The notes beneath the pieces are model-generated. The model was given only the letters and a program-made list of their open reading frames with translations. It made no database searches and was not told the origin of the DNA. Of a stretch of 63,869 nucleotides of DNA, positions 4,216-63,869 are shown one piece after another (positions within the stretch are counted from its first letter, which is position 1; each line of letters starts with the position of its first letter). The stretch is taken from positions 1-63,869 of IMG/VR virus record IMGVR_UViG_3300027816_000108; one strand, given 5' to 3'. A program made the translations under genes and the position numbers. The DNA is from a virus (Duplodnaviria > Caudoviricetes).

Positions 4216-5550
4216 ATGACAAATAAATTCATCCCGAACGGACAAGACAGGGAGAAAAAAATCAAGGCTATTAAACTCTATCATGCCTTTTTAAAACAAA
4301 ACCACACTAAGTTCCAATGTGTTGCTGATGCGACAAAAGCATTTATTGACGAACATGGGCTTTGTGGGTATGCAAGTTTTGATAGCCTTAAACAGCTAAC
4401 CCTTAGCTATCCCAAAACGTACAAATTGTATGTATCTAAAGGGCTTGTTGAACAAGACGAACCCGTACATATCAATAAATTGTATTTGGGTAAACACAAG
4501 CATAGGGATAAAACCCCTAAAGTAAAACCCAAAGAACTATCGGTTGATGATGAGATTGAGCAGGATTTAAGGGAGTGGAAATCAAAAGCCGAACAAAAGG
4601 ACATTAGACGAAAGTTCGATAATCTGCTTGGCAGATACAATCAACTGATGCACGACTATGAAACGCTTGCTGCTTTACGGGAATACACCCCACAAGATTT
4701 ACATATCAAGGAGGTTGTACCAACGGGTAAAAGCATGGCTGCTGCTATTGTGCAGTACAGCGATTGGCACGTGGATGAGGTGGTAAAGGCAAGTACCGTA
4801 AACTATAAAAATGAATATAACCCCGATATTGCTAAAAAACGTGCAGTTAAATGTATTCAGAATACTCTGCGAGTTATTAAAACATTCAGACACGACATTG
4901 CAGTTAATGACATTGTTATTCAACTTGGGGGTGACTTTATAGGTGGCTACATACACCCCGAACTTGAACAAACCAATTCTATGTCACCGCTTGAGGGTAT
5001 CCGATTTGCTACTGAACTGCTTGTGAACGGTATTAACTTCTTGGCTGAATACGGAGATTTTGATACCATTACGCTTGTATGTAACAGGGGTAATCACTCC
5101 CGATTAACCAAAAAAATGCAGTCAAACGACTACGCTATGAACCTTGAACAAAATATGTACTATGACCTTGCCAAAAAATTCAGGGATGATGAGCGTATGA
5201 AATTTGTAATCAATGATGCAGAAGTGGTGTATGTACCTATATTTGATAAAATAAACCGTTTCTTTCACGGGCATCAAGTAAAATCACAAGGCGGTATTGG
5301 GGGTATCGGTATTCCGTTGTACAAACAACTACACCGTTGGGACGCTTCACAACACGCTGACTACAACTTTATGTGTGATAAACACACCTACTCACAACCC
5401 ACCGAAAATTGCAATATTAACGGCTCACTAAAAGGGTGGGATGCGTATGCTATTGGCAAGGGATTCAAATACCAAGAACCCCTGCAAAGTTTACAGCTAT
5501 TGGACAATAAACGTGGTTATACAATCAGAACAAAAATAATTTGCGAATAA
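4216..5550 (+). CDS. Calcineurin-like metallophosphoesterase (phage nuclease/phosphoesterase)
   Basis: SDWH, GGDFIGG, GNH, FHGH and DKH metal-binding motifs. Confidence 0.85.
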   Translation: MTNKFIPNGQDREKKIKAIKLYHAFLKQNHTKFQCVADATKAFIDEHGLCGYASFDSLKQLTLSYPKTYKLYVSKGLVEQDEPVHINKLYLGKHKHRDKTPKVKPKELSVDDEIEQDLREWKSKAEQKDIRRKFDNLLGRYNQLMHDYETLAALREYTPQDLHIKEVVPTGKSMAAAIVQYSDWHVDEVVKASTVNYKNEYNPDIAKKRAVKCIQNTLRVIKTFRHDIAVNDIVIQLGGDFIGGYIHPELEQTNSMSPLEGIRFATELLVNGINFLAEYGDFDTITLVCNRGNHSRLTKKMQSNDYAMNLEQNMYYDLAKKFRDDERMKFVINDAEVVYVPIFDKINRFFHGHQVKSQGGIGGIGIPLYKQLHRWDASQHADYNFMCDKHTYSQPTENCNINGSLKGWDAYAIGKGFKYQEPLQSLQLLDNKRGYTIRTKIICE

Positions 5551-5551
5551 T

Positions 5552-5824
5552 ATGAAAAAAATAGAATTAACAGGAATAGAAGCCGAGTTATACATCATGG
5601 CGTGTGAACACTTTGGCTCGTTATCACAATTTATTGATGCTGTGACAAATGACAAAGCACAAGCCGAAGATAATGTTTGTCTTCTTAGTCAAAACCTTGA
5701 GGAAGCCATTAAAATAGCTGACCACTATCGGGAGTTAGTTGACGCATACCGCAATATGTCACCCCCAAAATTTACATGGTGTTGGATGAAATCGCTTGTT
5801 ACTAAAAAACCCGTAAACGTATGA
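5552..5824 (+). CDS. Hypothetical protein
   Basis: Operon continuity. Confidence 0.65.
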   Translation: MKKIELTGIEAELYIMACEHFGSLSQFIDAVTNDKAQAEDNVCLLSQNLEEAIKIADHYRELVDAYRNMSPPKFTWCWMKSLVTKKPVNV

Positions 5825-6033
5825 AAAAAGTATTAGCTTGGATTGTTTTAATCTCCTTCTTTGGTTGGGGTTTTTACAATATTATTGATAGCCTTATTAT
5901 CCAACCATGTATTAACTTTTACACCAAATATGGATACGCAGGTGTTTTTACGTGGCTGTTTGTAGTGATTGTAATAATACTTGCAGTAGTTTGCTTGGCT
6001 AAGATTTTGAATTGGGCAATAGACAATGCGTAA
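5821..6033 (+). CDS. Small membrane protein (2 TM)
   Basis: Two hydrophobic segments; ATGA overlap. Confidence 0.65.
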   Translation: MKKVLAWIVLISFFGWGFYNIIDSLIIQPCINFYTKYGYAGVFTWLFVVIVIILAVVCLAKILNWAIDNA

Positions 6034-6034
6034 C

Positions 6035-6217
6035 CTAAATCTTAGGCCAACTTATCTTACTCAATATAGCCCCCTTTGTGGGGCTTTTTACTTTATAGCC
6101 CATTTGCTCTAACACTAAACGGGTACTATCGGTTAATGCTGCGTAATGACATCCCGTTGGGGATTTCCTGATGCACTCAATGATGTATTCAATGCCCGTG
6201 TCCGTTAGTTTTGACAT
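6035..6217 (-). CDS. Hypothetical protein
   Basis: ATG 4 nt after TATATTTG (6229..6222). Confidence 0.65.
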   Translation of the reverse strand: MSKLTDTGIEYIIECIRKSPTGCHYAALTDSTRLVLEQMGYKVKSPTKGAILSKISWPKI

Positions 6218-6231
6218 ATCACAAATATAAT

Positions 6232-6254
6232 AAAAAAGCCCCAATTAAGGGGCT
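6232..6254 (-). terminator. Intrinsic terminator after primase-helicase
   Basis: AGCCCC/GGGGCT stem followed by a T6 run on the minus strand. Confidence 0.7.
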
Positions 6255-6258
6255 GATT

Positions 6259-8100
6259 TTAAAATGGTGGTTCATCTAAATGTTGTTCAAATCTTGGATT
6301 TATGTGATTGAACGGGTTATCAAGTGCAAGGTAATCAACCGTATTGAATATGAACCTGCGCCTGAAAAAGTCAAATTCAAACTCCAACATACCCCGTTTA
6401 AATAGCTTCTGCTTCTTTACCTTTAAGCTATGCCATTGACAGGTGGCTGACATGGGTTCTGTTTGAGCAACGGGTCTGTGGTATGCAAATAGGTTGTGTA
6501 GCTTGTTATCCCACATTGCACCCCCTGCCATATCATATTTATCGGGGCACTTGTAATTCCCCTCTTCGTCTTTTTGCATTTTGTGTGGGTGGGCTATAAT
6601 ATGAAAATACACATTGTTTTCATTGGCAAATCGCACAGCATCCCCCAAAAAGGCTTCAAGGTACTTGTCATCCCTACCCCCGTGTTTGGAGTAGTCATTA
6701 GTCATCGTGTTGAACGGGTCAATACATACTCCCGTTACACCGTGTTTGATTATCAGTTCTAAAAACTTTGCCTTTAGGTATTCGGGGGTTGGGGCTAATG
6801 TTTGGGGATACACATAGTAAAAATGTTCCCGTACAAAGTCATACGCTTCCTTAAACTTTTCTTTGCTTGGTCTGAACCTGTTTTCGGGGGTTAAACAACA
6901 CCCCATAAGTATTTCGGTTAGTTCTAAATACCATTCTTCTGCGGGGTAGTTTTCAGGGCCAAACACAGCAAACTTATCTCCGTCACGTAGTGCTTTGGTG
7001 ATAGCTAAATACTGCCACATGGTACTTTTACCGTAATTTCCGATACCCGTTAAGGCTGATACCTGCCTTTTCTTCCATTTGTAAAATTCATCAAGGGGTG
7101 GGATATGACACGATTCTGCTGATTCGTAACCCATGTCATACAGCCTTTCGGCATCATTCCACACATCTGCCCCGTATATTACGTCTGTGGGCTTGTAATC
7201 GGCATCCATAAGGTTGTCGGGGATGGTGTAGCTTGCTTCACCCGATTTAGTGACCATATACACCTCACCGTCTGTATCGAATTGGGCTTTGCCAAAATCT
7301 TTCCCGTTGCTGCGGTATGCACTTGTTACGGTACGGTTCATCTCCCGTTGTGAAAAATCGGTATCTCCCACAAGGTAATCCTGCGATATGTAACTTTCTG
7401 CATAGCCCTGTTGGATACCAAACCTGCAACACGCTGCTGCTAATTTGTATATGTAAAGGTTTCGCTCACCCCGTACAAAAGCATCACCCCTGTTTTCAAG
7501 CCATGTCTTTATCTTTTCGTAAATCTTGTATTCGTCTGTTTCGGGCTTGGTAACCTTTTTTACCTCAATCTTGGGTTCAATGTACACTCTATCCCATGTA
7601 TCACTTTTGGGATTGATGTATATTTCGGAATCGTAGCTTTCATAACACACTCTGCTAACATTTATCCCTGATTTATCTATTTCGGGGAACACCTGCTGCA
7701 ACGATTGGAAATGCTCACGGTGTTTGGTGCTGTCTGATATTCTGACTAACACCTTCACCCCATTACCGCTTGGGCTTATCCAACACGCATACGTGCATGG
7801 CCATTTAAGCATCTTACCCTTGCGCTCAATAGCTTGTTCGACTGTCTTATAGTCAAAATCAAGCACTATAAATCCTGAGTGTTTTATTAGGGCGGTATCC
7901 TTTCGCTCACCGAACTTACCCGAAAACATTACACAGGGTAATGATTTCTTTAGGTCGTTCTGTATTTCTTTGTCTGATTCTGACCGTATTTTATCAATCA
8001 GTTCCTTAGATTTCCCGATTTTAATTCGTTCTAAAGCCCCGTCAATAGTAATGGTATGATTGCCCGTTATATCGGATATGTTCTTGTATATTGAAATCAT
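6259..8100 (-). CDS. Primase-helicase: BT4734/VirE N-terminal primase-like domain fused to SF4 (Twinkle/T7 gp4-like) helicase
   Basis: SGFIVLDFD, WISPSGNGVK, SRVCYESYD; GERN helical domain; Walker A GIGNYGKST, Walker B VCIDPFN, IIAHP. Confidence 0.85.
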   Translation of the reverse strand: MISIYKNISDITGNHTITIDGALERIKIGKSKELIDKIRSESDKEIQNDLKKSLPCVMFSGKFGERKDTALIKHSGFIVLDFDYKTVEQAIERKGKMLKWPCTYACWISPSGNGVKVLVRISDSTKHREHFQSLQQVFPEIDKSGINVSRVCYESYDSEIYINPKSDTWDRVYIEPKIEVKKVTKPETDEYKIYEKIKTWLENRGDAFVRGERNLYIYKLAAACCRFGIQQGYAESYISQDYLVGDTDFSQREMNRTVTSAYRSNGKDFGKAQFDTDGEVYMVTKSGEASYTIPDNLMDADYKPTDVIYGADVWNDAERLYDMGYESAESCHIPPLDEFYKWKKRQVSALTGIGNYGKSTMWQYLAITKALRDGDKFAVFGPENYPAEEWYLELTEILMGCCLTPENRFRPSKEKFKEAYDFVREHFYYVYPQTLAPTPEYLKAKFLELIIKHGVTGVCIDPFNTMTNDYSKHGGRDDKYLEAFLGDAVRFANENNVYFHIIAHPHKMQKDEEGNYKCPDKYDMAGGAMWDNKLHNLFAYHRPVAQTEPMSATCQWHSLKVKKQKLFKRGMLEFEFDFFRRRFIFNTVDYLALDNPFNHINPRFEQHLDEPPF

Positions 8101-8373
8101 TTATTTTAAATTGAATACATGGTTTAATTCTTCTTGTAAATACCATTGCAAATTAGATACATCCTTCTTAACCCCGATATTCTTTACAAGGCTTTCTGCT
8201 GTTTTAAAACTTAATTGCTTCCTATCAACATTCCAATGCCCCACAAATGGGATATGTTTGGGGGTATTCGTAATATCAAAAAGTTCCCCTTTTCTAAAAG
8301 CAAGCAATCTCCCATTAAATGTAAATGAATTGCTGTATTTTATTATGTATGGATTTTCGATACTCATAATCAA
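8101..8373 (-). CDS. Hypothetical protein starting within the attI-like site
   Basis: ORF abuts the primase-helicase start; its first codons overlap the 8346-8409 repeat. Confidence 0.7.
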   Translation of the reverse strand: MIMSIENPYIIKYSNSFTFNGRLLAFRKGELFDITNTPKHIPFVGHWNVDRKQLSFKTAESLVKNIGVKKDVSNLQWYLQEELNHVFNLK

Positions 8374-8409
8374 TTAGTTATAACTCAGGGTGCAGGAAGC
8401 GGGTAGTTA
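8346..8409 (+). mobile_element. attI-like site A (ends in core GTTA)
   Basis: 54/64 identical to 54489-54552; contains IHF-consensus-like AATCAATTAGTTA; directly precedes a cassette. Confidence 0.65.
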
Positions 8410-8669
8410 GCACCAATTTTATGACCGATAATTACGGGCAAAATAACTGATTGATGCCATGCATAACATTCCGAATAAAAACCAAACGGTGCATTTCCAT
8501 TCGACATTTTCAATAAAGAAGTCCGTAATTCTTGCAAGTATTCCAAAAAGGAACATACAAATAAATGTGAGCATTGATACTAAAATAAACTTTCTCATAA
8601 TAAAAACTGGTGCTAACATTGGTTTTACGCAAGTGGGGGTTAGCGTTTAAACCCATCTTACGTGCTTCG
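8407..8669 (+). mobile_element. Single gene cassette with truncated attC
   Basis: Starts GTTAGCACCA (8406-8415) with its exact reverse complement TGGTGCTAAC at 8608-8617; the right arm of the attC is missing. Confidence 0.6.
8419..8598 (-). CDS. Cassette-borne small membrane protein (2 TM)
   Basis: MRKFILVSML...; hydrophobic and AT-rich. Confidence 0.6.
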   Translation of the reverse strand: MRKFILVSMLTFICMFLFGILARITDFFIENVEWKCTVWFLFGMLCMASISYFARNYRS

Positions 8670-8981
8670 CTATATACTTACAACCACGTCAAATGTGCCT
8701 ATTTTACCCCCAAACAGTGTATCGGTTTTGTTTACAAACGACAACAGTATAAACAACTGAGCCGCTTCATCGTACCTCATTTCACCCCGTTTACTCTTAT
8801 CGGATTTTTTGATTATATAGCCATTGCCATTGTCTTCCAATCCCATTGCAAGTGTACCCCTTATATGTTCGTTATAATGCTCGGAGTGGCTGTAAAACAA
8901 CCAATAATGGGTGCTTTCAGCCTTATCAACCGCTAAGGTGTATTCTTCTTCACCGTGATTGTTTATGACTTTGTATTTCAT
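8670..8981 (-). CDS. Hypothetical protein
   Basis: ATG 4 nt after TAACTTTG; Fur-box-like site upstream (9005-9023). Confidence 0.75.
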   Translation of the reverse strand: MKYKVINNHGEEEYTLAVDKAESTHYWLFYSHSEHYNEHIRGTLAMGLEDNGNGYIIKKSDKSKRGEMRYDEAAQLFILLSFVNKTDTLFGGKIGTFDVVVSI

Positions 8982-9006
8982 ACTGCAAAGTTACAATTAA
9001 ACCTGT

Positions 9007-9234
9007 TTAGACACGTTCTAAATTACGGGCACGATAGTAACCTTCCTCAATATCAAGGTCTTTTTTCATGGTTTTTATTTCATCCTGAAGTTGGGGGATG
9101 CCCCAATTCTCAAACCTTTGTATGAGTTCACGTGTGTCGTACAACGATGCGTTGTCGAAATCCTGTCGCATTTTATAGCGCAGGTAATCCCAAAAGTCTA
9201 AATTCCCGCTTTCTCTTTCCATATCTTTTTCCAA
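9007..9234 (-). CDS. Hypothetical protein
   Basis: ORF in the minus-strand operon. Confidence 0.6.
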   Translation of the reverse strand: MEKDMERESGNLDFWDYLRYKMRQDFDNASLYDTRELIQRFENWGIPQLQDEIKTMKKDLDIEEGYYRARNLERV

Positions 9235-9313
9235 TTTTGTTCGTTGTGGTTTTTACCAAATGCGCTGTCTAACAGCAAGCTATACTCATCCAACAATTTT
9301 TCAAAAGCATCTT

Positions 9314-9808
9314 TTAGCTTTTCGTACTTGGCGGATTGTTGGCATCCGCAGTCTTTTTCGTCTTGCATTTTTTACAACTTATTTTAATAAACATGGGTTC
9401 ATCAACTGATATACCCAATGAATTTTCGATTTCATCAATCATTTGTTTGTGGGACTTGGATGCGTATTCGTATATTTTACCGCACCCAAAACACACAAGG
9501 TGTGAATGAAAAGGTTTGAAATGTGCGTTTTCATATACCGTTTCACCTGCCCACTTGTACTTAACCAATAAACCACACTCTGTAAGCCATTCAAGGCGTT
9601 CTGCGACATTTTTACGGGTAAAGCCATACAATCCTATACTAAAGTTATAGATGTCATTGTATGTAAAATGGTAATCTCCCGCATATAGATAATTAATAAA
9701 AGAGATAATACCTTCGGGAACTTTTTTACCAAATTTTTGCTTATACCAATCATAAAATATCCTACGTGCGTGTTCTTGCCTATAATCAATGTACTCAGGA
9801 TTAGACAT
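9314..9808 (-). CDS. fur: Fur-family metalloregulator
   Basis: HFT motif, L...GLL wing, HSHLVCFGCGKI and C-terminal CKKC; length typical of Fur/Zur/PerR. Confidence 0.8.
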   Translation of the reverse strand: MSNPEYIDYRQEHARRIFYDWYKQKFGKKVPEGIISFINYLYAGDYHFTYNDIYNFSIGLYGFTRKNVAERLEWLTECGLLVKYKWAGETVYENAHFKPFHSHLVCFGCGKIYEYASKSHKQMIDEIENSLGISVDEPMFIKISCKKCKTKKTADANNPPSTKS

Positions 9809-10337
9809 ACTCAAAATCAATATCTATGGTGTGTGGTGCTGTTTCATCACCCCCGAAATAAGGCCATGACATCCAACCTAAATCGGATTTTTCGTATTGC
9901 ATCCAATAGTTCAGCAGGTTCTCACGCTCAAAGTCAATATCAAAATGTACGATACCCCGTAAATTCATAACAAGCGAAAACTTGTAAACTTTACCAAAAT
10001 CCAACTCCACTATGGGTAGGTACATTTCCTTGCCGTAGTAAAACACTACCCCGTCTTTGTAAATGTACGGACATACCTCAATAGTATCATGTAACGGGTT
10101 GTATCTCCAACCGAACCTTACGCTATTCCAATGAACAGGGGGTTTAAATCCACCTTTAAACGAGGGGAACATACCGATAGTAAACCCAAACAGCTTGTTC
10201 CAATCTAATTGATTTTCAACTTCTTTGGTTTCATACCGTGCAGTATTGTTGAAACTGATATTAAACCGCACCCCGTCATAGGGGCAAATAAGTGACGGTA
10301 ATGCTAATGCGTGGTGTGTGTGTTTATAAATTTTCAT
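9801..10337 (-). CDS. Conserved hypothetical protein, probable beta-sandwich (ConA-like)
   Basis: WNKLFGF, NSVRFGWRY and PYFGG motifs. Confidence 0.6.
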   Translation of the reverse strand: MKIYKHTHHALALPSLICPYDGVRFNISFNNTARYETKEVENQLDWNKLFGFTIGMFPSFKGGFKPPVHWNSVRFGWRYNPLHDTIEVCPYIYKDGVVFYYGKEMYLPIVELDFGKVYKFSLVMNLRGIVHFDIDFERENLLNYWMQYEKSDLGWMSWPYFGGDETAPHTIDIDFEYV

Positions 10338-10656
10338 TTTCAAGTTCTCGGTTTGCTTTTTTGTAATTAATGTAGTACCTGCAAAAGTCATCAAACGAAC
10401 CACCTGCCGCATACGCAAAGTTAGCTAATGTGCTTACCGTTATTTGTGAAATCCACGTGGGGTGTTTCAGGTTCTGAACGTACCTCATGTTAATTTCAAT
10501 ATTGGTTGCTTTGCGCATACGGATTATAAGTGTTCGTATTGCGATGTCATCCCGCATACATATATCCTCAAGATAGTACGAGAATATGGTGCGGATTTCA
10601 ACCTCAAAACTTTTGTAGTTGACATTGCGTTTTTTATACTTACGCTTGTATTTCAC
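10324..10656 (-). CDS. Hypothetical, possible HTH protein
   Basis: Basic N-terminus and helical body. Confidence 0.55.
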   Translation of the reverse strand: MKYKRKYKKRNVNYKSFEVEIRTIFSYYLEDICMRDDIAIRTLIIRMRKATNIEINMRYVQNLKHPTWISQITVSTLANFAYAAGGSFDDFCRYYINYKKANRELENENL

Positions 10657-10675
10657 GTAATTAATTGATTACCAA

Positions 10676-11029
10676 TCAGAAGGGAAGCGAATCCGTTGGT
10701 TCGTCTTTATCAAACAATATGCTTTCGGGGGTGTCTTTACCCTCAACCTCACCCGTTGATTTGTTGATAAACGCAACGTCTGATGCTAACAATGCCATAA
10801 ACCATTGACCTTGCCATTCACGGGTGTCATAGCGGTATGTTACTTCTACCTGCTGACCTACGTGGCGTTCTTCGATAATGTCTGTACCTTCTTGTTTGAG
10901 TTCAAACACAATCTTTTCTAACTTTTCCTTTTCAAGTACGAACTTGCGTACATAGAATGGCTTGTTGGGGTCTTTACCACGATTTTCACGTTTACCAACC
11001 CAATGTAATTTTCCTGTTTCCGTCATCAT
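10676..11029 (-). CDS. Single-stranded DNA-binding protein (DUF3127-like)
   Basis: OB-fold-like pattern (REWQGQWF) and acidic tail ending DSLPF. Confidence 0.75.
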   Translation of the reverse strand: MMTETGKLHWVGKRENRGKDPNKPFYVRKFVLEKEKLEKIVFELKQEGTDIIEERHVGQQVEVTYRYDTREWQGQWFMALLASDVAFINKSTGEVEGKDTPESILFDKDEPTDSLPF

Positions 11030-11094
11030 AAAATGTTAATTATACCACAAAGGTAATACATAGTGTAATACCCTGCAAATTATTTTTGAAAAAA

Positions 11095-11223
11095 TTATCT
11101 TCCTTGTCTGTTGTATGCTTTTACTGATTCGTGCTTGTTGCGCTTTTTCTTCTGCACGCCTGTTTTCTTTTTACCGAAACTTACCTTACGTTGTTCTTTT
11201 GTGGGTTTGCCTACTTTTGCCAT
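11095..11223 (-). CDS. 42 aa highly basic peptide (not in the ORF track)
   Basis: MAKVGKPTKEQRKVSFGKKKTGVQKKKRNKHESVKAYNRQGR; TATATTTG promoter upstream. Confidence 0.6.
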   Translation of the reverse strand: MAKVGKPTKEQRKVSFGKKKTGVQKKKRNKHESVKAYNRQGR

Positions 11224-11247
11224 TTTTTAGTATTTCCCACAAATATA

Positions 11248-11412
11248 CTAAATACTGACTATATCTTCGTCACTATTCAATTCGCAAATCTTACCCCCTT
11301 CTGTTAGGTCTATAACGGTTACTATTGGGTCATCATCTTCTAAATATGTTACCATAATGGATAGCTGTAAATCACCCATTGAACCCATAACTTTAAATGC
11401 TGTTGAAATCAT
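11248..11412 (-). CDS. Small acidic hypothetical protein
   Basis: ATG 4 nt after TACATTTG (11424..11417). Confidence 0.6.
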   Translation of the reverse strand: MISTAFKVMGSMGDLQLSIMVTYLEDDDPIVTVIDLTEGGKICELNSDEDIVSI

Positions 11413-11459
11413 GCCACAAATGTAATACATTAATAGCATTATACAAAATGTATTTTTGC

Positions 11460-11978
11460 TCAATAGTTGATAGTGTCTAATACGCTTTGTATATAAGCCA
11501 AATCAGATTCATCCAATGAAAACCATTCACCACGCACTCTTTTTTCAGCGTATTTTTTGTGCAGGTTAGATTCTAATTTTCTTGAATTTTCGGTTTTACT
11601 CATGCCATAAAACAAAAGACTAATTGTTGGTCTTATTGAAAGCATAGTGTGTTCTCTGTATTTGGGGTCTTTAGATATGCCTATTTTGTAATAATTTGTT
11701 AATTCATCAAACATTACATATAGAAATGAACCGCTATTATTACCACTAACGGGGGCTTTTCCCGATACAAGGTTTAATAGTTCTTCTTCTAACAAACCCT
11801 CATTGATTTTGCTTATATCGTTTTCTTCTGCAAACTTAATTGTGTTTGAAATATATTTGCTTATCAATTCAGCATCGGTCTTTGATAAGTATTGGCAATA
11901 CCCGTTAAGGTTTATTATTATGCCGTTTTCTTGGTCTATGCCAAGTATAATTGGTTTAGAGAAATCCATAATCCGCAT
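11460..11978 (-). CDS. GIY-YIG/T5orf172 (MUG113-like) domain protein
   Basis: LYVM...YKIGISKDP..R...E..LHKKY..KRVRGEWF; start placed after the TATATTTG promoter. Confidence 0.8.
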   Translation of the reverse strand: MRIMDFSKPIILGIDQENGIIINLNGYCQYLSKTDAELISKYISNTIKFAEENDISKINEGLLEEELLNLVSGKAPVSGNNSGSFLYVMFDELTNYYKIGISKDPKYREHTMLSIRPTISLLFYGMSKTENSRKLESNLHKKYAEKRVRGEWFSLDESDLAYIQSVLDTINY

Positions 11979-12041
11979 ATTATTTAATGATACAAATATA
12001 CAATTTTTTAAAAAAACACTTGCATTTATATTTTTTTGTTG

Positions 12042-12149
12042 TACTTTTGTATTGCATTGCATGCGGCTTTGCGGTATATTTGTATCGAATTTCTTTTTGA
12101 AGTCATATAAGAATCCCTGCTGGCCGCATACAGTGGGGTTTTCTTTTTT
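12042..12149 (+). ncRNA. Promoter plus leader hairpin whose loop is complementary to the transcript 5' end (attenuator/antisense-like)
   Basis: TACTTTTG at 12042-12049; ATGCGGC at 12061-12067 pairs with loop GCCGCAT at 12123-12129; stem 12109-12145 ending in a T-run. Confidence 0.4.
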
Positions 12150-12445
12150 ATATGTACCCCACAAATGCATTTTTAGCTTGAAGCATAATGCGACCGTGAA
12201 AGTACGAGCAGATTCGTTGATGTTTGACGACAAAACATAATACCCTTTAAATGACGTGCAAGGACGAAACACTATCCTGCGTCAGCCATACAATACTCAG
12301 AACTCGCTTATACCGAAGTTAATTGGTTAGGGTGTTTCCATTCTTTCTTGTGGGGGTGGGGGTGGAAACACCTTTTCCTACCTCCAAGCCTTGAATCTGC
12401 TTACCCGAAGTTTAATATTGACTTGCTTATATCGGTAGAATAAGT

Positions 12446-12529
12446 GTGGTAGACAAAGACGTGGTAGACAAAGTTTGTTAGTATAGACAAGCTAATACAA
12501 TCAAAAAAAAGATTAGTAAAAAGATTAGT
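12446..12529. repeat. Iteron-like direct repeats
   Basis: GTGGTAGACAAAG at 12446 and 12461; AAAAAGATTAGT at 12506 and 12518. Confidence 0.6.
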
Positions 12530-12568
12530 TAATTTGAGAAAATAAAAGGTTTGTATTACATTTGCAGT

Positions 12569-12826
12569 ATGAAACAGGATTACGACTACATTAACCCCGA
12601 ACACTATCAAGTAGGAGATAAAGAGGTATGGCAGATGATGATTGACATTTGGGGTGTTGATGCGTTTATTAGCTTTTGCAGGTTAAACAGCTTTAAATAC
12701 AGAATGAGATTAGGCTTGAAACCCGAACAACCCATAGAGCGTGATTTAGAAAAAGCATTATGGTACGAAAATATGGCGAATAAGCTACTCAAGTCTAAAA
12801 ACAACGAAAGGTACGGGGGATGCTAA
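12569..12826 (+). CDS. DUF3310 / T7 gp1.7-like nucleotide kinase family protein
   Basis: INPEHY, FCRLNSFKYRMRLG.K, DLEKALWY. Confidence 0.8.
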   Translation: MKQDYDYINPEHYQVGDKEVWQMMIDIWGVDAFISFCRLNSFKYRMRLGLKPEQPIERDLEKALWYENMANKLLKSKNNERYGGC

Positions 12827-13014
12827 GATTGTTGATTAAAAAGCGTTATAGGGGCAAAAACGGGCATACCTACATCATAGATAACATTTGGTGGTTAAAA
12901 GGTGAGGTATCACACATTGACTTATCCGATGATAAGGGCAAGAAGTATAACATGATTGAACTGAAATGGCTTGATACCAAATTAGCATCAGGTGAACTTG
13001 AACCCATAAAATAA
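12820..13014 (+). CDS. Hypothetical protein
   Basis: Overlaps the previous gene and is followed by a terminator. Confidence 0.6.
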   Translation: MLRLLIKKRYRGKNGHTYIIDNIWWLKGEVSHIDLSDDKGKKYNMIELKWLDTKLASGELEPIK

Positions 13015-52716: not shown

Positions 52717-53062
52717 AGTAAACGGGGGAAGATACAGCAAGGCTGAACCCTCGAAGAGAACATATAATGGGGTTGTATATCAATCAATATGGGAAATGGA
52801 ATACGCCAAGAAGTTAGACTACCTGCTCAAAGCGGGTGAGATAAAGTCATGGAACAGGCAAGTGCCATTCCCGATTATAGTCAACGACCAAAAGGTTACA
52901 ACGTACATCTGCGACTTTGAAGTAATCAACCATGACGGAAGTAAAAGGTATATTGACCCCAAGTCATCACCCAAGATAGTTGACGAAGTGTTTAAGCTAA
53001 AGGCTAAATTGGTAAAGGCTATTTACGGGGTAGAGATTGAAGTGGTATATCAGAAGCCTTAG
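52682..53062 (+). CDS. DUF1064-like PD-(D/E)xK endonuclease
   Basis: YNGVVYQS..E, RQVPF, YICDF...IDPK. Confidence 0.7.
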   Translation: MGLTLTLRKKRKVNGGRYSKAEPSKRTYNGVVYQSIWEMEYAKKLDYLLKAGEIKSWNRQVPFPIIVNDQKVTTYICDFEVINHDGSKRYIDPKSSPKIVDEVFKLKAKLVKAIYGVEIEVVYQKP

Positions 53063-53465
53063 ATACCTTGTAGTACTCCCGTATTAGTTCCAAACGGATT
53101 GCTTGCACCCTTTCGTATGTTTGCATACTGCTTCTATCCCCGAACTCATACTTGTGATGGCAACCCACACAAAGAAGTAGATGATTACGAATGTCGCTGC
53201 GAAGAGCAGTATTGCTCCCCTTTGAAATAATATGGCTGATATAAGCAGGATTAAACTCAGGCAATCCTTTGCCACATTCTTCGCATGACTTAGTTTTGTG
53301 GCTATCCCATGCACGTTTGTAATACTCTTTGTTTTCATTTCCGTTCTTGTTTGATTTCCTAATTGGTTTATAGGATGCAGCAGCACACGGTTTACACCTG
53401 CCCTTGCTGAATATGTACGTTACATTACCGCACTCTTTGCACGGTTTCTTTTTGGGGGTTATCAT
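53019..53465 (-). CDS. HNH/NinG-like nuclease
   Basis: CEECG...SHIISKG...N..LLC..CH. Confidence 0.7.
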   Translation of the reverse strand: MITPKKKPCKECGNVTYIFSKGRCKPCAAASYKPIRKSNKNGNENKEYYKRAWDSHKTKSCEECGKGLPEFNPAYISHIISKGSNTALRSDIRNHLLLCVGCHHKYEFGDRSSMQTYERVQAIRLELIREYYKVSKASDIPLQSLPRK

Positions 53466-53798: not shown

Positions 53799-54467
53799 TC
53801 AACGTATTATTTGGAATAGCAAATCCTCAGTTACCTGACTTGGGGGACAATGCAAATCCCCCTGCAATGTTATGAGTTTAGCCCCGTTACCTACCATTAC
53901 TTCGCTTTGTTTGTAGTGAACAATAGTGTCGTCTTTATAATGAATCAATGTTACGGGGCAATCGAACTTATGGTCTGATACATTCACATCCCCATAGGTA
54001 CGGGCAACACCCAATAGTTTACTACACAGCCAATCGTTTGTATTGGATATAGTGGCAACACATATCACCCCCTCTACCCTGTTCTTGCTTGCGTAGTTCA
54101 ATACAATATTAGTACCTGCACTTTGCCCGACTAACCACACCCTTTTAATACCCATTGATTTCAGGGCAGCAATAGCGTTGGTTATATCCTCAAGCATACT
54201 ATCAGATGTTGCGGGTAAAAACCTATAATTCATAGCCGCATAGGAATATCCCCTTGATTTGATTAGGGGTTTGATATACTCCCAATCAGACATATCACCC
54301 GATACCCACGCACCACCATGTACAAATAGGCAACAGGTTTCACCCGTTAATTGATACGTCATAACCTGACGTTCATGTTGCCCGTATCTCAATACGGATT
54401 GGGTTTCTTTTTCTTTGGCGCACCCAATAAGGAACGGCATAATTAAAAATAATATTCTTTGTAACAT
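53799..54467 (-). CDS. Alpha/beta hydrolase (esterase) lipoprotein
   Basis: Lipobox LIGC, HGGAW oxyanion motif, GQSAG nucleophile elbow, Asp/His candidates (DDTIV, DLHC). Confidence 0.8.
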   Translation of the reverse strand: MLQRILFLIMPFLIGCAKEKETQSVLRYGQHERQVMTYQLTGETCCLFVHGGAWVSGDMSDWEYIKPLIKSRGYSYAAMNYRFLPATSDSMLEDITNAIAALKSMGIKRVWLVGQSAGTNIVLNYASKNRVEGVICVATISNTNDWLCSKLLGVARTYGDVNVSDHKFDCPVTLIHYKDDTIVHYKQSEVMVGNGAKLITLQGDLHCPPSQVTEDLLFQIIR

Positions 54468-54488
54468 AGTTTTAATTAATATTTTGGT

Positions 54489-54552
54489 TGTATGGATTTT
54501 GGCTACTGATAATCAACTAATTACAATTCAAGGTGCAAGAAGCAGGTAGTTA
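54489..54552 (+). mobile_element. attI-like site B (ends in core GTTA)
   Basis: 54/64 identical to 8346-8409; AATCAACTAATTA IHF-like motif; heads the 5-cassette array. Confidence 0.65.
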
Positions 54553-54560
54553 TGTGCCAT

Positions 54561-55115
54561 TTAAAGAACGACACTGCTCTCAACTTCATTTCCCCAAACA
54601 TCCCAACCATTTCTCGGATAACGGCAGAAAAGTTCAACTCTTGGTAAATCACCAAACAACAGTTCAATTCGCTCAATCGCTTCAATAGGTTTCTTACTAT
54701 GTTTTGTTCTTTCTGCTTCTATTAGTTGAAAAATGTTGTTTGCTTTTTTGTGTTGCAACATATTACCTTTTGCACCTAAAATACACACCTCACAGTTTTT
54801 CATTGTCCACGCCCCAACATTTGCACAAGTATTGCCTTTATTGGTTATTTTCTTCCAAATAAAAACTATTGTTCGGTATGTAAAGCCCCACGCTTCTATT
54901 AATTCAATCCCTTCTTTTAGGTGGCTATCTGTTACCCATAAAAATAAAGCACAATCTTTGTCTGCAATATCTTTTACTGGTAATTGTTGCAACTCTTTTT
55001 TTGTCATCGTTGGGTATTGCTCATCTATAAGTCGGTCTTTTCTGCCGTTATCCTGATAAACCCCTTTGTTAAATCCCCAAGCTGGGTCTGCATAAATTAT
55101 TTGATATTTCTTCAT
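54561..55115 (-). CDS. MT-A70-family adenine methyltransferase (cassette 1)
   Basis: IIYADPAW, LFLWVT, WGF.Y.T..F.W.K, HSKKP, ELF.R...GWDVWGNE. Confidence 0.9.
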   Translation of the reverse strand: MKKYQIIYADPAWGFNKGVYQDNGRKDRLIDEQYPTMTKKELQQLPVKDIADKDCALFLWVTDSHLKEGIELIEAWGFTYRTIVFIWKKITNKGNTCANVGAWTMKNCEVCILGAKGNMLQHKKANNIFQLIEAERTKHSKKPIEAIERIELLFGDLPRVELFCRYPRNGWDVWGNEVESSVVL

Positions 55116-55145
55116 ATTTATAAATTAAATTCGTGAATAAAAAAC

Positions 55146-55245
55146 GGCACATAACACGGTATATAAGCAAGTTTGCCATCAAGTTTATCGGTAATTTGAA
55201 ACATTCTGCAAGGCAAACCTGCTCATATACCCACCGTTAGCACCC
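55146..55245 (+). repeat. attC site 1
   Basis: GGCACATAAC...GTATATAAGCAAGTTTGCC/GGCAAACCTGCTCATATAC...GTTAGCACCC. Confidence 0.85.
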
Positions 55246-55473
55246 ATTGTAGAAATAATCCACATTGAAGCTAATAGTTAATATTCTACCATCATATCTA
55301 AATTGGTGGTTAATGTACTTTTCCCCTTTTACAATCGTTTTACCAGTTCCGTAGCATTGTCGCTTTCTGTTACTTGTTCTCTCAGTCGTAGAGCGTACAT
55401 TATCAAAAACAACGGGTGCTAACAGCGTATATAAAACATTACTGGGTTGTAGTTTTTTGTTACTGTGTGCCAT
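55237..55473 (-). CDS. Cassette 2 hypothetical protein
   Basis: Starts in the attC2 loop; its stop is the TTA of the core site. Confidence 0.65.
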   Translation of the reverse strand: MAHSNKKLQPSNVLYTLLAPVVFDNVRSTTERTSNRKRQCYGTGKTIVKGEKYINHQFRYDGRILTISFNVDYFYNGC

Positions 55474-55550
55474 TTTATAAGTTTTTTATTGTTGTCAATA
55501 TTTTTGTGCTTTTCATACGCAACGTTTCATATACGAAAAACGTTACCTGC
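55414..55550 (+). repeat. attC site 2
   Basis: GGGTGCTAAC...CGTATATAAAACATTAC/GCAACGTTTCATATACG...GTTACCTGC. Confidence 0.85.
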
Positions 55551-55555
55551 AAGTG

Positions 55556-56395
55556 CTACATTTCGTTTCCAAATAGAGTTTCTGCCTGTAAATCTTTTTC
55601 TTTTCTTTTTTCTTCCCTCGCTTTTTTAATACGTTCTTCAATAATATTACAGTATTCATTTGATAATTCACTTCCAATAAAATTTCTATTACTTAAAATA
55701 CTCATTTTTGCAGTAGTTCCACTTCCCATAAAGCAATCATAAACTAAATCATTTTCATTGCTCCAAGTTATAATGTGGTCTAAACATAATTGTTCTGGGA
55801 ACATTGCAGGATGTTCAAAAGCAAAAGTATCTGATGTTGTATTTCCTTTCCCTGTTGCATATTCCCAAATATTATATCTATACCCAAGTTCTTCAACTAA
55901 TCTTTGTTTTCTATCTCCAAGTACGCCATCCTTTTCTCTTACGGTTGTTTTGCCAAACGTATAAGTTCCTCCGTATTTATTTTTTCTATCTTTTATTAAG
56001 TTAGTTGTTTTCGGTTTGCCTTTGCTTAATACAAACATAAATTCAATAGCATCTCTATATCTTCCTTTATGTGGCAATCCTCCGCTTGTTTTAGAATAAA
56101 TCATTGTGTCATAGACATTAAATCCGATACTTTGAAAATATAAACATTGTTTAAATGATGTAAGGCTTTTATTTCCATTCACAGTAGCATCTTTTACAAC
56201 CCAAATAACAACTCCACCTTGTTTGGTTATTCTATATAATTCTTTTGCAATATCCTCAAATGGAAATGAATACCCCTTGTAATCTCTTAAATTATCGTAA
56301 GGTGGAGATGTTACTGTTAAATCCACAAAACAATCGGGCATTTTTGCCATTGTTTCTAAATTGCTTTCATTATAATTCTTGTTTATCTCAATCAT
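55556..56395 (-). CDS. N4-cytosine/N6-adenine DNA methyltransferase, beta class (cassette 3)
   Basis: TSPPY, HPAMFP, DCFMGSGTT. Confidence 0.9.
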   Translation of the reverse strand: MIEINKNYNESNLETMAKMPDCFVDLTVTSPPYDNLRDYKGYSFPFEDIAKELYRITKQGGVVIWVVKDATVNGNKSLTSFKQCLYFQSIGFNVYDTMIYSKTSGGLPHKGRYRDAIEFMFVLSKGKPKTTNLIKDRKNKYGGTYTFGKTTVREKDGVLGDRKQRLVEELGYRYNIWEYATGKGNTTSDTFAFEHPAMFPEQLCLDHIITWSNENDLVYDCFMGSGTTAKMSILSNRNFIGSELSNEYCNIIEERIKKAREEKRKEKDLQAETLFGNEM

Positions 56396-56493
56396 TTTTT
56401 TAAATTTTTCAAATTAATATTTACCATCGCACAAAAAAGAAAAGAAAAAGCGTTTGCGTTCCAATTCAAATTATGTGGTAATAATCCGCACCA

Positions 56494-56590
56494 GCAGGTA
56501 ACAGCGTATATAAGAAATGGCACATAAACATTTGTGCTAACTTTCAACATTCTACAAGTGCCACTTCTTATATACGCAAAACGTTAGGTT
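56494..56590 (+). repeat. attC site 3
   Basis: GCAGGTAAC...GCGTATATAAGAAATGGCAC/GTGCCACTTCTTATATACGC...GTTAGGTT. Confidence 0.85.
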
Positions 56591-56611
56591 CAATTAAATT
56601 ATTGTTTTGAG

Positions 56612-56971
56612 TTATTTAATAAATTTACATCTAACCCAATAAAGTGTCATATTAGGTTCGTGCTGTGTATGTAGTGAATAAAAAAAACATTTAGTTGCCC
56701 CTTTCTTTTCATATTCTTCAATATCATCTTGGAATTGTTTTAAATCCTTATACATCTTACTTTCCACATATAACTCGCTACCATTATATTCAAATTTAGG
56801 TGTAGTTACTTGAATTATTTCTAATTTAGGTTTTAATGTAACCTCGGATTGACAAAACCATTCCCCATTTATTAAATAGATGTTTTGGTCTGTATCCCAC
56901 TCTATTTTTTTAATTAAACCTTCAAATAATCTATCGCCAGATTTTACAATAACTAAATCTTTTTCTTTCAT
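56612..56971 (-). CDS. Cassette 4 hypothetical protein
   Basis: ORF fills the cassette. Confidence 0.7.
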   Translation of the reverse strand: MKEKDLVIVKSGDRLFEGLIKKIEWDTDQNIYLINGEWFCQSEVTLKPKLEIIQVTTPKFEYNGSELYVESKMYKDLKQFQDDIEEYEKKGATKCFFYSLHTQHEPNMTLYWVRCKFIK

Positions 56972-57005
56972 AATTTTTTTATATGGTAAAACAATAATTT
57001 AACAA

Positions 57006-57063
57006 AACCTAACAAATGATAAACAACATTAAAACGATTGTTTATCATCAACCGTTAGCGGCA
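57006..57063 (+). repeat. attC site 4 (short)
   Basis: AACCTAAC...ATGATAAACAA/TTGTTTATCAT...GTTAGCGGCA. Confidence 0.8.
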
Positions 57064-57064
57064 A

Positions 57065-57271
57065 TTACTTCTGCACCATAGTATAAGGTCGATATTCGCC
57101 ATTCACATTCAATCTATCTAACAATCTTTTCACTCTTTCATAAGTTCTCGGTGTTACAGCCCAATCATCAGGCATCTCAATACCGTCCTTATCAAGTATC
57201 TTCCATGTAACTGCCGCTAACACATTATTTGCGTCAGTGTGGGCGATGTGCTTTTTAGAATCTGTGTGCAT
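57065..57271 (-). CDS. Cassette 5 hypothetical protein
   Basis: Starts in the attC5 loop. Confidence 0.65.
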   Translation of the reverse strand: MHTDSKKHIAHTDANNVLAAVTWKILDKDGIEMPDDWAVTPRTYERVKRLLDRLNVNGEYRPYTMVQK

Positions 57272-57350
57272 ATTTTGAACTTTAGTTTGTTAAACAATCT
57301 TTGGTGGTGTAATGCCCCACCGAACGCAAATAATCGGAACGTTATGGCGA
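57212..57350 (+). repeat. attC site 5
   Basis: TGCCGCTAAC...ATTATTTGCGT/ACGCAAATAAT...GTTATGGCG. Confidence 0.8.
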
Positions 57351-62962: not shown

Positions 62963-63869
62963 AATACATTTAGAATGGTTCTAAATAATATTTCCCCTTC
63001 ATACGCTGTTGAAAAGGTAGTTTATACACCGTCTATTTAACATAATATTAAACGGAGTGGGCGGGGTTATTACTCTTCCTTACAATCAAAATACTGATAG
63101 TTTGACCTGCAAAAGTACAGTATTCATTTGCCACCCCCAAAATTGAGGATATTACCCCTTGTTTCATTGCCCTGTAGGTTTGTTCTGTATATTTTGGCTT
63201 TACCCCTTATCTGACAAGGGTTTGCTTTGGTTAGTGCTGCGTGCATTGAGCGGGGTTTGAGGTTGTAATGAGCGCAAAGTGAAACCAACGTACGCCAAAC
63301 TGTTAATTCATTACCCCGTGAATAGATATAAACTTTCATAAATACTGATACTTTGAGGAACAAAAGTACAACATTTCACCCCAACAAACAAGTGGTATCA
63401 ATTCCTTTTTAGGGGTTAATATCAAATGATAATTATTCTCATTTAGGAATGTTTCAATCTAAAGTTTTAATTCAGGCGGGAGGGTGCAACGTGCACACAA
63501 TCAGCCCCAAACAGGGGGCAGCCCCGAAACGGGGTAGGGGTGTTTTTATACGAACACACGAGGCACGGATTGGGGGGGATAACCAACATCTTGAGCACAG
63601 GATTGTGATTTTGGGGCAACTCCCGTAAATAAGCATTGTTTAACCCCCCGTCACTGACAATGGATAATGAAATATGAGTTATTGCCCTCCCCCAAAAGGG
63701 TATGGGGTCAATGCCACGCTTTTTTACAAAGGGTTATTAAATTAGCTATACTCCCTTTTAGGGTAGTGGTTTAGCCAACATCTTGTACAATGTTGTGTTT
63801 TTTGTGTAACCCCTGTAAATGTATGGGGGGGGGGGGTTATATGCCGTATGGGGGTTTTTAAAATGGGGG
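62963..63869. repeat. Right direct terminal repeat (imperfect)
   Basis: Matches 1-907 except 63074-63360. Confidence 0.95.
63124..63339 (-). CDS. Small hypothetical protein, terminal-repeat allele B
   Basis: Homologous to 151..375; TACTTTTG promoter at 63368..63361. Confidence 0.75.
   Translation of the reverse strand: MKVYIYSRGNELTVWRTLVSLCAHYNLKPRSMHAALTKANPCQIRGKAKIYRTNLQGNETRGNILNFGGGK

Follow-up and report, generated by a model that had tools for sequence, protein, structure and literature searches.

The DNA analyzed here, called the window throughout, is an IMG/VR virus record of 63,869 nt and belongs to a Bacteroidota phage of about 63 kb and of the Flavobacterium type. Two copies of a 64-nt repeat lie inside minus-strand early-gene blocks of this phage (6035-12170 and 53019-63339). 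Read on the gene strand, each copy comes after small genes and before backbone genes, at the promoter-distal end of a row (Table 1). With tblastn, the primase/helicase was found to be related to those of Flavobacterium, Cellulophaga, and Maribacter phages. Relatives of the primase and of the 88-aa protein were not detected among viral contigs, and positions 5001-13000 gave no blastn match among GenBank phages.

A GIY-YIG (T5orf172/MUG113) gene is located at the promoter-proximal end of locus 1 (11460-12170), and, beyond copy 2, a weak HNH gene (53019-53465) forms the promoter-distal end of the locus-2 block of genes. The terminal direct repeat of ~907 nt (1-907 and 62963-63869) is imperfect, with 97-99% identity, and includes an 83-nt patch at only 71% identity (212-294 versus 63176-63258). 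It is possible that two strain variants or the end of a concatemer have been joined in this record.

Table 1. Features at the two loci of the window, ordered by position.
Feature	Position	Strand	Remarks
Primase/helicase, BT4734-like_N + AAA_25	6259-8100	-	Conserved backbone gene downstream of copy 1
88-aa ORF	8101-8367	-	No Pfam family; ATG 8365-8367 and first 7 codons within copy 1
64-mer copy 1	8346-8409	+	No fold; 100% identical in contig L033
Core of copy 1	8389-8409	+	Only part present in other backbones; crossover between G8406 and T8407
Locus 1 unit 1	8407-8639	+	66-aa membrane-like ORF 8419-8619 (-), then truncated hairpin from 8612
Locus 1 unit 2, decayed	8640-9006	+	103-aa ORF 8670-8981 (-); far side without hairpin
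Lipoprotein alpha/beta-hydrolase	53799-54467	-	Downstream of copy 2; signal-peptide-like start
64-mer copy 2	54489-54552	+	Core 54532-54552; crossover between G54549 and T54550
Locus 2 unit 1	54550-55236	+	MT-A70 methyltransferase 54561-55115 (-) and hairpin 55152-55239
Locus 2 unit 2	55237-55542	+	Small ORF and hairpin 55420-55545
Locus 2 unit 3	55543-56583	+	N6_N4 methyltransferase 55556-56395 (-) and hairpin 56499-56586
Locus 2 unit 4	56584-57054	+	119-aa ORF 56612-56971 (-) and short hairpin 57010-57057
Locus 2 unit 5	57055-57341	+	Short unit and hairpin 57218-57344

Rows of units and their hairpins

Elements of the form TAAC-stem-loop-stem-GTTA are found five times next to copy 2 and once, in truncated form (8612-8642), next to copy 1; beyond unit 5 of locus 2, no complete hairpin was found. 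When at least 13 of 16 positions had to be paired, three sites (six strand matches) were detected in the window, as compared to a total of two matches in 20 shuffled sequences. Folding was computed for hairpins and 64-mers as single-stranded DNA against shuffled sequence, and the TAAC...GTTA elements of the window folded with z-scores of -3.3 to -6.3. Each gene between the hairpins has an inverted repeat of its own that ends with GTTA... and ...TAAC, such as GTTAGCACCA and its complement plus TAAC around the 66-aa ORF of locus 1. The 119-aa ORF of locus 2 is enclosed by a 26-nt inverted repeat of 88% identity.

For a broader comparison, a set of 25 hairpins of 48-130 nt was used, all of which had TAACG...TGTTA ends. 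The 85 stem mismatches in this set comprised 43 G.T mismatches on the gene strand versus 10 A.C mismatches, and the gene strand was the better-folding strand in 19 of the 25 hairpins. The outer arms covary between homologous methylase units, with GGG/CCC in contig L043 and CGC/GCG in the cultured Flavobacterium phage lillamy9-1. The hairpins neighboring the 64-mers have features of attC sites, namely imperfect inverted repeats, AAC...GTT ends, and cassette-specific complementary outer boxes. A point against an integron-like row is the asymmetry of their spacers, with 5-6 nt on one arm versus 1-2 nt on the other, since the extrahelical bases of classical attC sites are on the opposite arm.

The same row architecture covers ~6 kb in lillamy9-1 and is also present in the Polaribacter phage P12002L, whose methylase region is matched by window positions 54400-57100. 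The architecture is more clearly visible in contig L043, where three units with unique complementary arms each form a row that ends with ...TAAC, the last part of the 64-mer, one further nucleotide, and the ATG of an HTH gene. Integrase-less attC clusters (CALINs) of this appearance have been described by Qi et al. (2023, Front Microbiol, PMC9892861), who report 17 of them in phages, including a P12002L CALIN with two methyltransferase genes, and who also describe that IntI1 recombined one of the two predicted attC sites of P12002L into attI1. The window rows resemble these CALINs in their TAAC...GTTA hairpins, their methyltransferase cargo, and the lack of an integrase, and a hairpin loop as well as a methylase unit are common to P12002L and the window. 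The rows themselves are therefore of a published kind, CALINs in virulent phages.

Some side aspects of the hairpins may be noted. The window hairpin 57010-57057 and a P12002L hairpin (L049, 3612-3715) have the same 11-nt loop on different stems. Like rows of hairpins are carried by two uncultured jumbo-phage records of 635 kb and 462 kb (L054, 20039-20660; L055, 16498-19541), neither of which has a PF00589 match. In GenBank records of Lillamyvirus phages, very short CDSs are annotated on or within hairpins (L044, 3488-3583, 4883-4990, and 5617-5733), and these may be annotation artefacts.

Composition of the 64-nt repeat

In a gapless alignment, the two 64-mers were identical at 54 of 64 positions, exactly as a sequence-only reading of the window had claimed. 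A BLAST search of the record with 8330-8430 found copy 2 with E = 9.7e-16. A repeat finder, which extended the pair to 83 nt at 78% identity, returned it as the sole long internal repeat of the window besides the terminal repeat. The left edge is abrupt, with matches at 0-5 of 10 positions in the 10-nt blocks leftward of 8346. Both copies were said to end at GTTA, where identity should stop. GTTA is indeed present at 8406-8409 and 54549-54552, but a faint tail of identity persists beyond it, with 5, 7, 5, and 2 matches in the successive 10-nt blocks. That neither copy is a hairpin was in full agreement with our folding analysis, in which the two copies gave z-scores of -0.11, +0.70, +1.19, and +0.65 on both strands in comparison to shuffles.

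What had been regarded as a 64-bp site consists of two different parts. Only the last ~21 nt (8389-8409), termed the core in the following, recur in other backbones, whereas the remaining 43 nt do not, and a 28-nt pattern from the left part of the 64-mer had no match in viral contigs. In copy 1, these 43 nt are the leader and the first seven codons of the 88-aa ORF, and copy 2 retains the start of this ORF as a dead relic, with ATC in place of ATG and a stop after 13 codons. The possibility, raised together with the original claim, that the similarity is only a duplicated gene start thus applies to the left 43 nt. The full 64-nt length of the repeat reflects this duplicated gene start, which would have been copied to locus 2, leader included, along with the core.

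Related cores were identified by pattern scans of viral contigs and metagenomes. A loose 17-nt core pattern gave 30 loci, 29 of which were chance matches within unrelated sequence. The metagenome core scan gave eight loci, with three chance matches (L034-L036), and the genome core scan gave a single match in a Campylobacterales MAG, also by chance. On the gene strand, three distinct backbone genes come after the core, namely the 88-aa ORF with the primase, the hydrolase, and a 70-aa HTH gene. The latter is found in L003 (identical to L038 and L039), L037, L040, and L043, in which the core directly precedes the HTH gene and a differing unit lies on the opposite side.

The IHF consensus noted in the sequence-only reading, WATCAANNNNTTR, is present in both copies (8368-8380 and 54511-54523), but the pattern is common in the window, with 13 matches versus 5.95 +/- 2.55 expected, and it is absent from all four cores that precede the HTH gene. 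Being common in the AT-rich DNA of the window and lacking in the HTH-type cores, the pattern has little weight as evidence. A specific IHF site that is conserved at a fixed distance from the crossover was not seen. A TAGTTA repeat upstream of the core is present in copy 1, degenerate in copy 2, and missing before the HTH gene, and the cores of copy 1, copy 2, and the HTH type have neither a dyad nor a second binding box nor direct repeats that are conserved among them. The idea that the core is one half of a hairpin (TAAC, one stem arm, and GTTA) was tried and rejected; with weight matrices of the arms of the 25 hairpins, the cores scored at most 2.2 bits, versus 7.5 bits for the 99.9th percentile of the window.

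On the gene strand, the repeat immediately precedes genes, and the HTH-gene contigs have 1 nt between the core and the ATG. Such positions would suit a promoter, a translation leader, or an RNA element that serves the gene following the row. However, neither copy contains TAnnTTTG, the -7 promoter consensus that does occur at other intergenic sites of the window, and the repeat does not fold on either strand. The distance from the core to the next start is 1 nt, 21 nt, or, in copy 2 with its dead original start, 64 nt, and the three downstream genes are unrelated. An expression signal is thus a very unlikely explanation of the repeat.

Different units at one core and their movement

Nine different first units come after the 21-nt core when the window is taken together with its related contigs and the metagenome assemblies; hits with variable cassettes behind them had been named in the sequence-only reading as support for an insertion site. 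These are the first units at the two window cores, L033 (also in run X10), L003, L037, L040, L043, X15/X17, and X16. Contig L033 matches the window at 8284-8410 with 100% and at 8612-9293 with 97.7% identity; the intervening 2480 nt of L033 contain four other genes, as compared to one 201-nt unit in the window. Run X10 contains two forms, that of the window and that of L033. Assembly contigs part from the window at 8406-8410 in four public runs. A joint at 8425-8599 in a single contig of run X16 was left out of the comparison, since its shorter side spans only 20 nt. In runs X15, X16, and X17, contigs with primase and core continue past 8409 into other sequence, and contigs with the first unit of the window have a hairpin end (...GATAAC or ...GAAAAC) ahead of it at 8406. 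Taken together, the hairpin end at 8406 and the divergent core contigs indicate that at least one extra unit is present in these three runs exactly between G and TTA (G↓TTA in the following).

The variety of first units bears on the question of whether the core is merely a passive edge without site function, namely backbone that abuts the row, with the G↓TTA of the first unit or a minimal GTT site being sufficient and the 64-mer being a relic of ectopic recombination that carried a gene start. The composition of the repeat would fit to such a relic, as 43 of the 64 nt are leader plus seven codons and copy 2 has ATC for ATG. The core is also not clearly more conserved than its flanks, with two differences in 21 nt between the copies as compared to eight in the other 43 nt. 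However, the same 17-21 nt are found at the row end in three unrelated backbones, with both sides differing, and the core has been reused with nine different first units. A passive edge is for these reasons unlikely, and we favor a core that serves as a docking junction.

Cultured Lillamyvirus phages that are 98-100% identical (lillamy9-1, lillamy9-7, snork6-2, and hemulen6-1) made it possible to follow the movement of units. A unit of ~434 nt, consisting of an ORF and a hairpin upstream of its start, is located at an internal place in lillamy9-1 (record positions 5642-6075, L047). It is gone from this place in lillamy9-7 and likewise not there in snork6-2 and hemulen6-1. In lillamy9-7, the unit (L050, 2037-2475) instead separates precisely the G from the TTA at the end junction next to the conserved gp04. 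The end unit is missing in snork6-2, and in hemulen6-1, two other methylase units occupy this place. The ~434-nt unit has thus left its internal place and re-entered at the equivalent G↓TTA of the end junction, which is a natural translocation. In all six events, the ends were at, or at most 5 nt from, G↓TTA on the strand opposite to the genes. The Lillamyvirus moves imply that, on this strand, a unit consists of TTA, the reversed gene, the hairpin, and ...ACG, and that it enters at the hairpin-free end junction.

These moves also determine the polarity of the rows. The crossover strand is opposite to the genes and therefore the plus strand of the window, so that the original orientation, in which the site heads the rows with the conserved part on the left and the variable units on the right of G↓TTA, was right. 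The unit genes face the site. This is the reverse of the textbook integron layout, in which cassette genes point away from the site, and of the canonical cassette, in which the gene is on the G↓TT strand and attC is downstream of the gene; the unit that moved in lillamy9-7 has its hairpin upstream of the gene, with G↓TTA on the non-coding strand. The opposite reading, with the gene strand as the top strand, the hairpin downstream of the gene, and the 64-mer as a tail, would fit to the truncated hairpin shared at 8612, but it is contradicted by the Lillamyvirus moves and the run contigs.

The truncated hairpin (TAAC, one 21-nt arm, and GTTA; window 8612-8642, L033 2608-2640) is common to the window, L033/X10, and X16, and the units to its left differ among these three. 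As a boundary, position 8612 is at odds with the G↓TTA rule. It lies at the start of a 28-nt stretch shared between the window and L033, as would be expected if units were shuffled by homologous recombination between repeated intergenic motifs, like the PeSLs of T4-like phages, with the 64-mer as a portable homology. The setting is also alike, since PeSLs are repeated intergenic stem-loops in a phage region of small non-essential genes (Comeau 2014, PMC4122927). Against such shuffling stands that the unit ends coincide with G↓TTA in the six events and that donor and target of the lillamy9-7 move have only ~7 nt in common. Furthermore, the hairpin arms stay matched and units have covarying end arms of their own, both of which would be broken by crossovers inside the repeats. 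We consider this explanation highly improbable.

In a separate comparison, related methyltransferase units with 64-69% DNA identity were found in L033 (120-799), hemulen6-1 (L053, 2034-2722), and L040 (539-1319). They are the first unit in two unrelated phage types and the second unit in a third, and the similarity among them begins at GTAGTTA.

The end junctions of the Lillamyvirus phages and P12002L share only GT[A/T]GTTA with the core, which indicates that a specific sequence may not be needed and is a further point for a passive edge. In the same direction, IntI1 has been described to insert at many genomic attG sites that need ~9+9 nt around GWT (Loot et al., bioRxiv 10.1101/2022.09.11.507474). 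The core would resemble the attG sites of that report in being double-stranded, outside of an integron, and subject to a single cut at G↓WT with insertion of a cassette. The attG sites are described there as many and loosely defined, whereas here one sequence of 17-21 nt recurs in three backbones and is used repeatedly.

Relation to integrons and significance

The existence of the repeat is confirmed, and its final ~21 nt behave like a docking junction of integron-like rows. We consider it probable that they are a fixed double-stranded docking junction of such a cassette row. The likeness to attI, for instance attI1 of class 1 integrons, consists in the following: the site is not a hairpin, it is conserved on one side of G↓TT, a variable first cassette is joined to this conserved left part at the crossover, as seen with the nine sequences after the core, and it is the point of entry. 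The core does not fold above shuffles on either strand, and it may correspond to attI as a double-stranded site. Relative to the attI crossover 5'-G↓TTRRRY-3', the boxes found here, GTTAGCA and GTTATGT, keep GTT and only partly RRRY. In contrast to attI, the phage site has no integrase gene or cassette promoter beside it and no recognizable second box or direct repeats, the cassette genes point towards it, there are two copies per genome, and only ~21 nt are conserved.

The rows also differ from PeSLs (Arbiol 2010, PMC2839356; Comeau 2014, PMC4122927), with which they share small motif-bounded genes that are shuffled in plastic regions of virulent phages. PeSLs are described in these papers as promoter-terminator motifs that undergo homologous recombination, whereas the crossovers found here are precise, the units have inverted repeats of their own, and the hairpins are strand-biased; exchange within a promoter-terminator motif is not what was seen in these rows. 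As to the CALINs, the available text of PMC9892861 makes no mention of a fixed site of entry, of rows with reversed polarity, or of units that moved naturally. What is new here is the evidence for the end of the 64-mer as an entry point. For Lillamyvirus, the words hairpin, cassette, and stem-loop do not occur in the available text of the description (Nilsson et al. 2020, PMC7077304).

An intI gene was not found in the window. The window had no match to the PF00589 profile at E<=1, and the neighbors of the site are the 88-aa ORF with the primase and the hydrolase. PF00589 was absent from all five phage records examined (the window, G001, lillamy9-1, LR745206.1, and LR756500.1), and PF01797 and PF00239 were absent from the three records searched for them. 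No recombinase family was matched by the proteins beside the row ends of P12002L, lillamy9-1, L003, and the window. The three phage types with rows share almost no genes. As no recombinase was found in the phage records searched, the enzyme would be supplied in trans, in agreement with the original suggestion.

The following model would account for these data. On the gene strand, the docking junction would be TAAC followed by TACCYGCTTCYTGCACC. On the plus strand, a unit would consist of TTA, a unit-specific arm, the reversed gene or genes, the complementary arm, TAAC, the imperfect hairpin, and ...ACG. Units would be gained and lost by crossover between G and TTA, and since the crossover is at G↓TTA, the newest unit would directly abut the core, with transcription running towards the core from a promoter at the opposite end of the row. 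The folding strand would be the gene strand, and the recombinase may come from the host or from a co-infecting element. While the junction behavior was seen in the contigs and phages compared above, we infer the single-strand mechanism and the class of the enzyme.

More generally and only tentatively, we propose that unrelated virulent Bacteroidota phages keep "reverse integrons", that is, rows in which anti-restriction genes and other small genes are oriented towards a dedicated double-stranded docking site and which may be loaded and reshuffled during infection by a recombinase not encoded by these phages. If so, unrelated phages that share a host would draw on one common cassette pool.

Integrase-less attC clusters of phages have so far been published as curiosities and possible carriers of cassettes between bacteria. 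With a fixed and repeatedly used entry site in phages without recombinase, and with genes facing the "wrong" way, these rows would be working platforms by which the phages themselves capture genes, for the most part DNA methyltransferases that act against host restriction. Such a site would also bring integron-type recombination into a phylum that is nearly without classical integrons, as a complete integron is listed for only one Bacteroidetes genome in the available text on IntegronFinder 2.0 (PMC9024848). The cultured Lillamyvirus phages and their Flavobacterium hosts are a directly testable system for this view.
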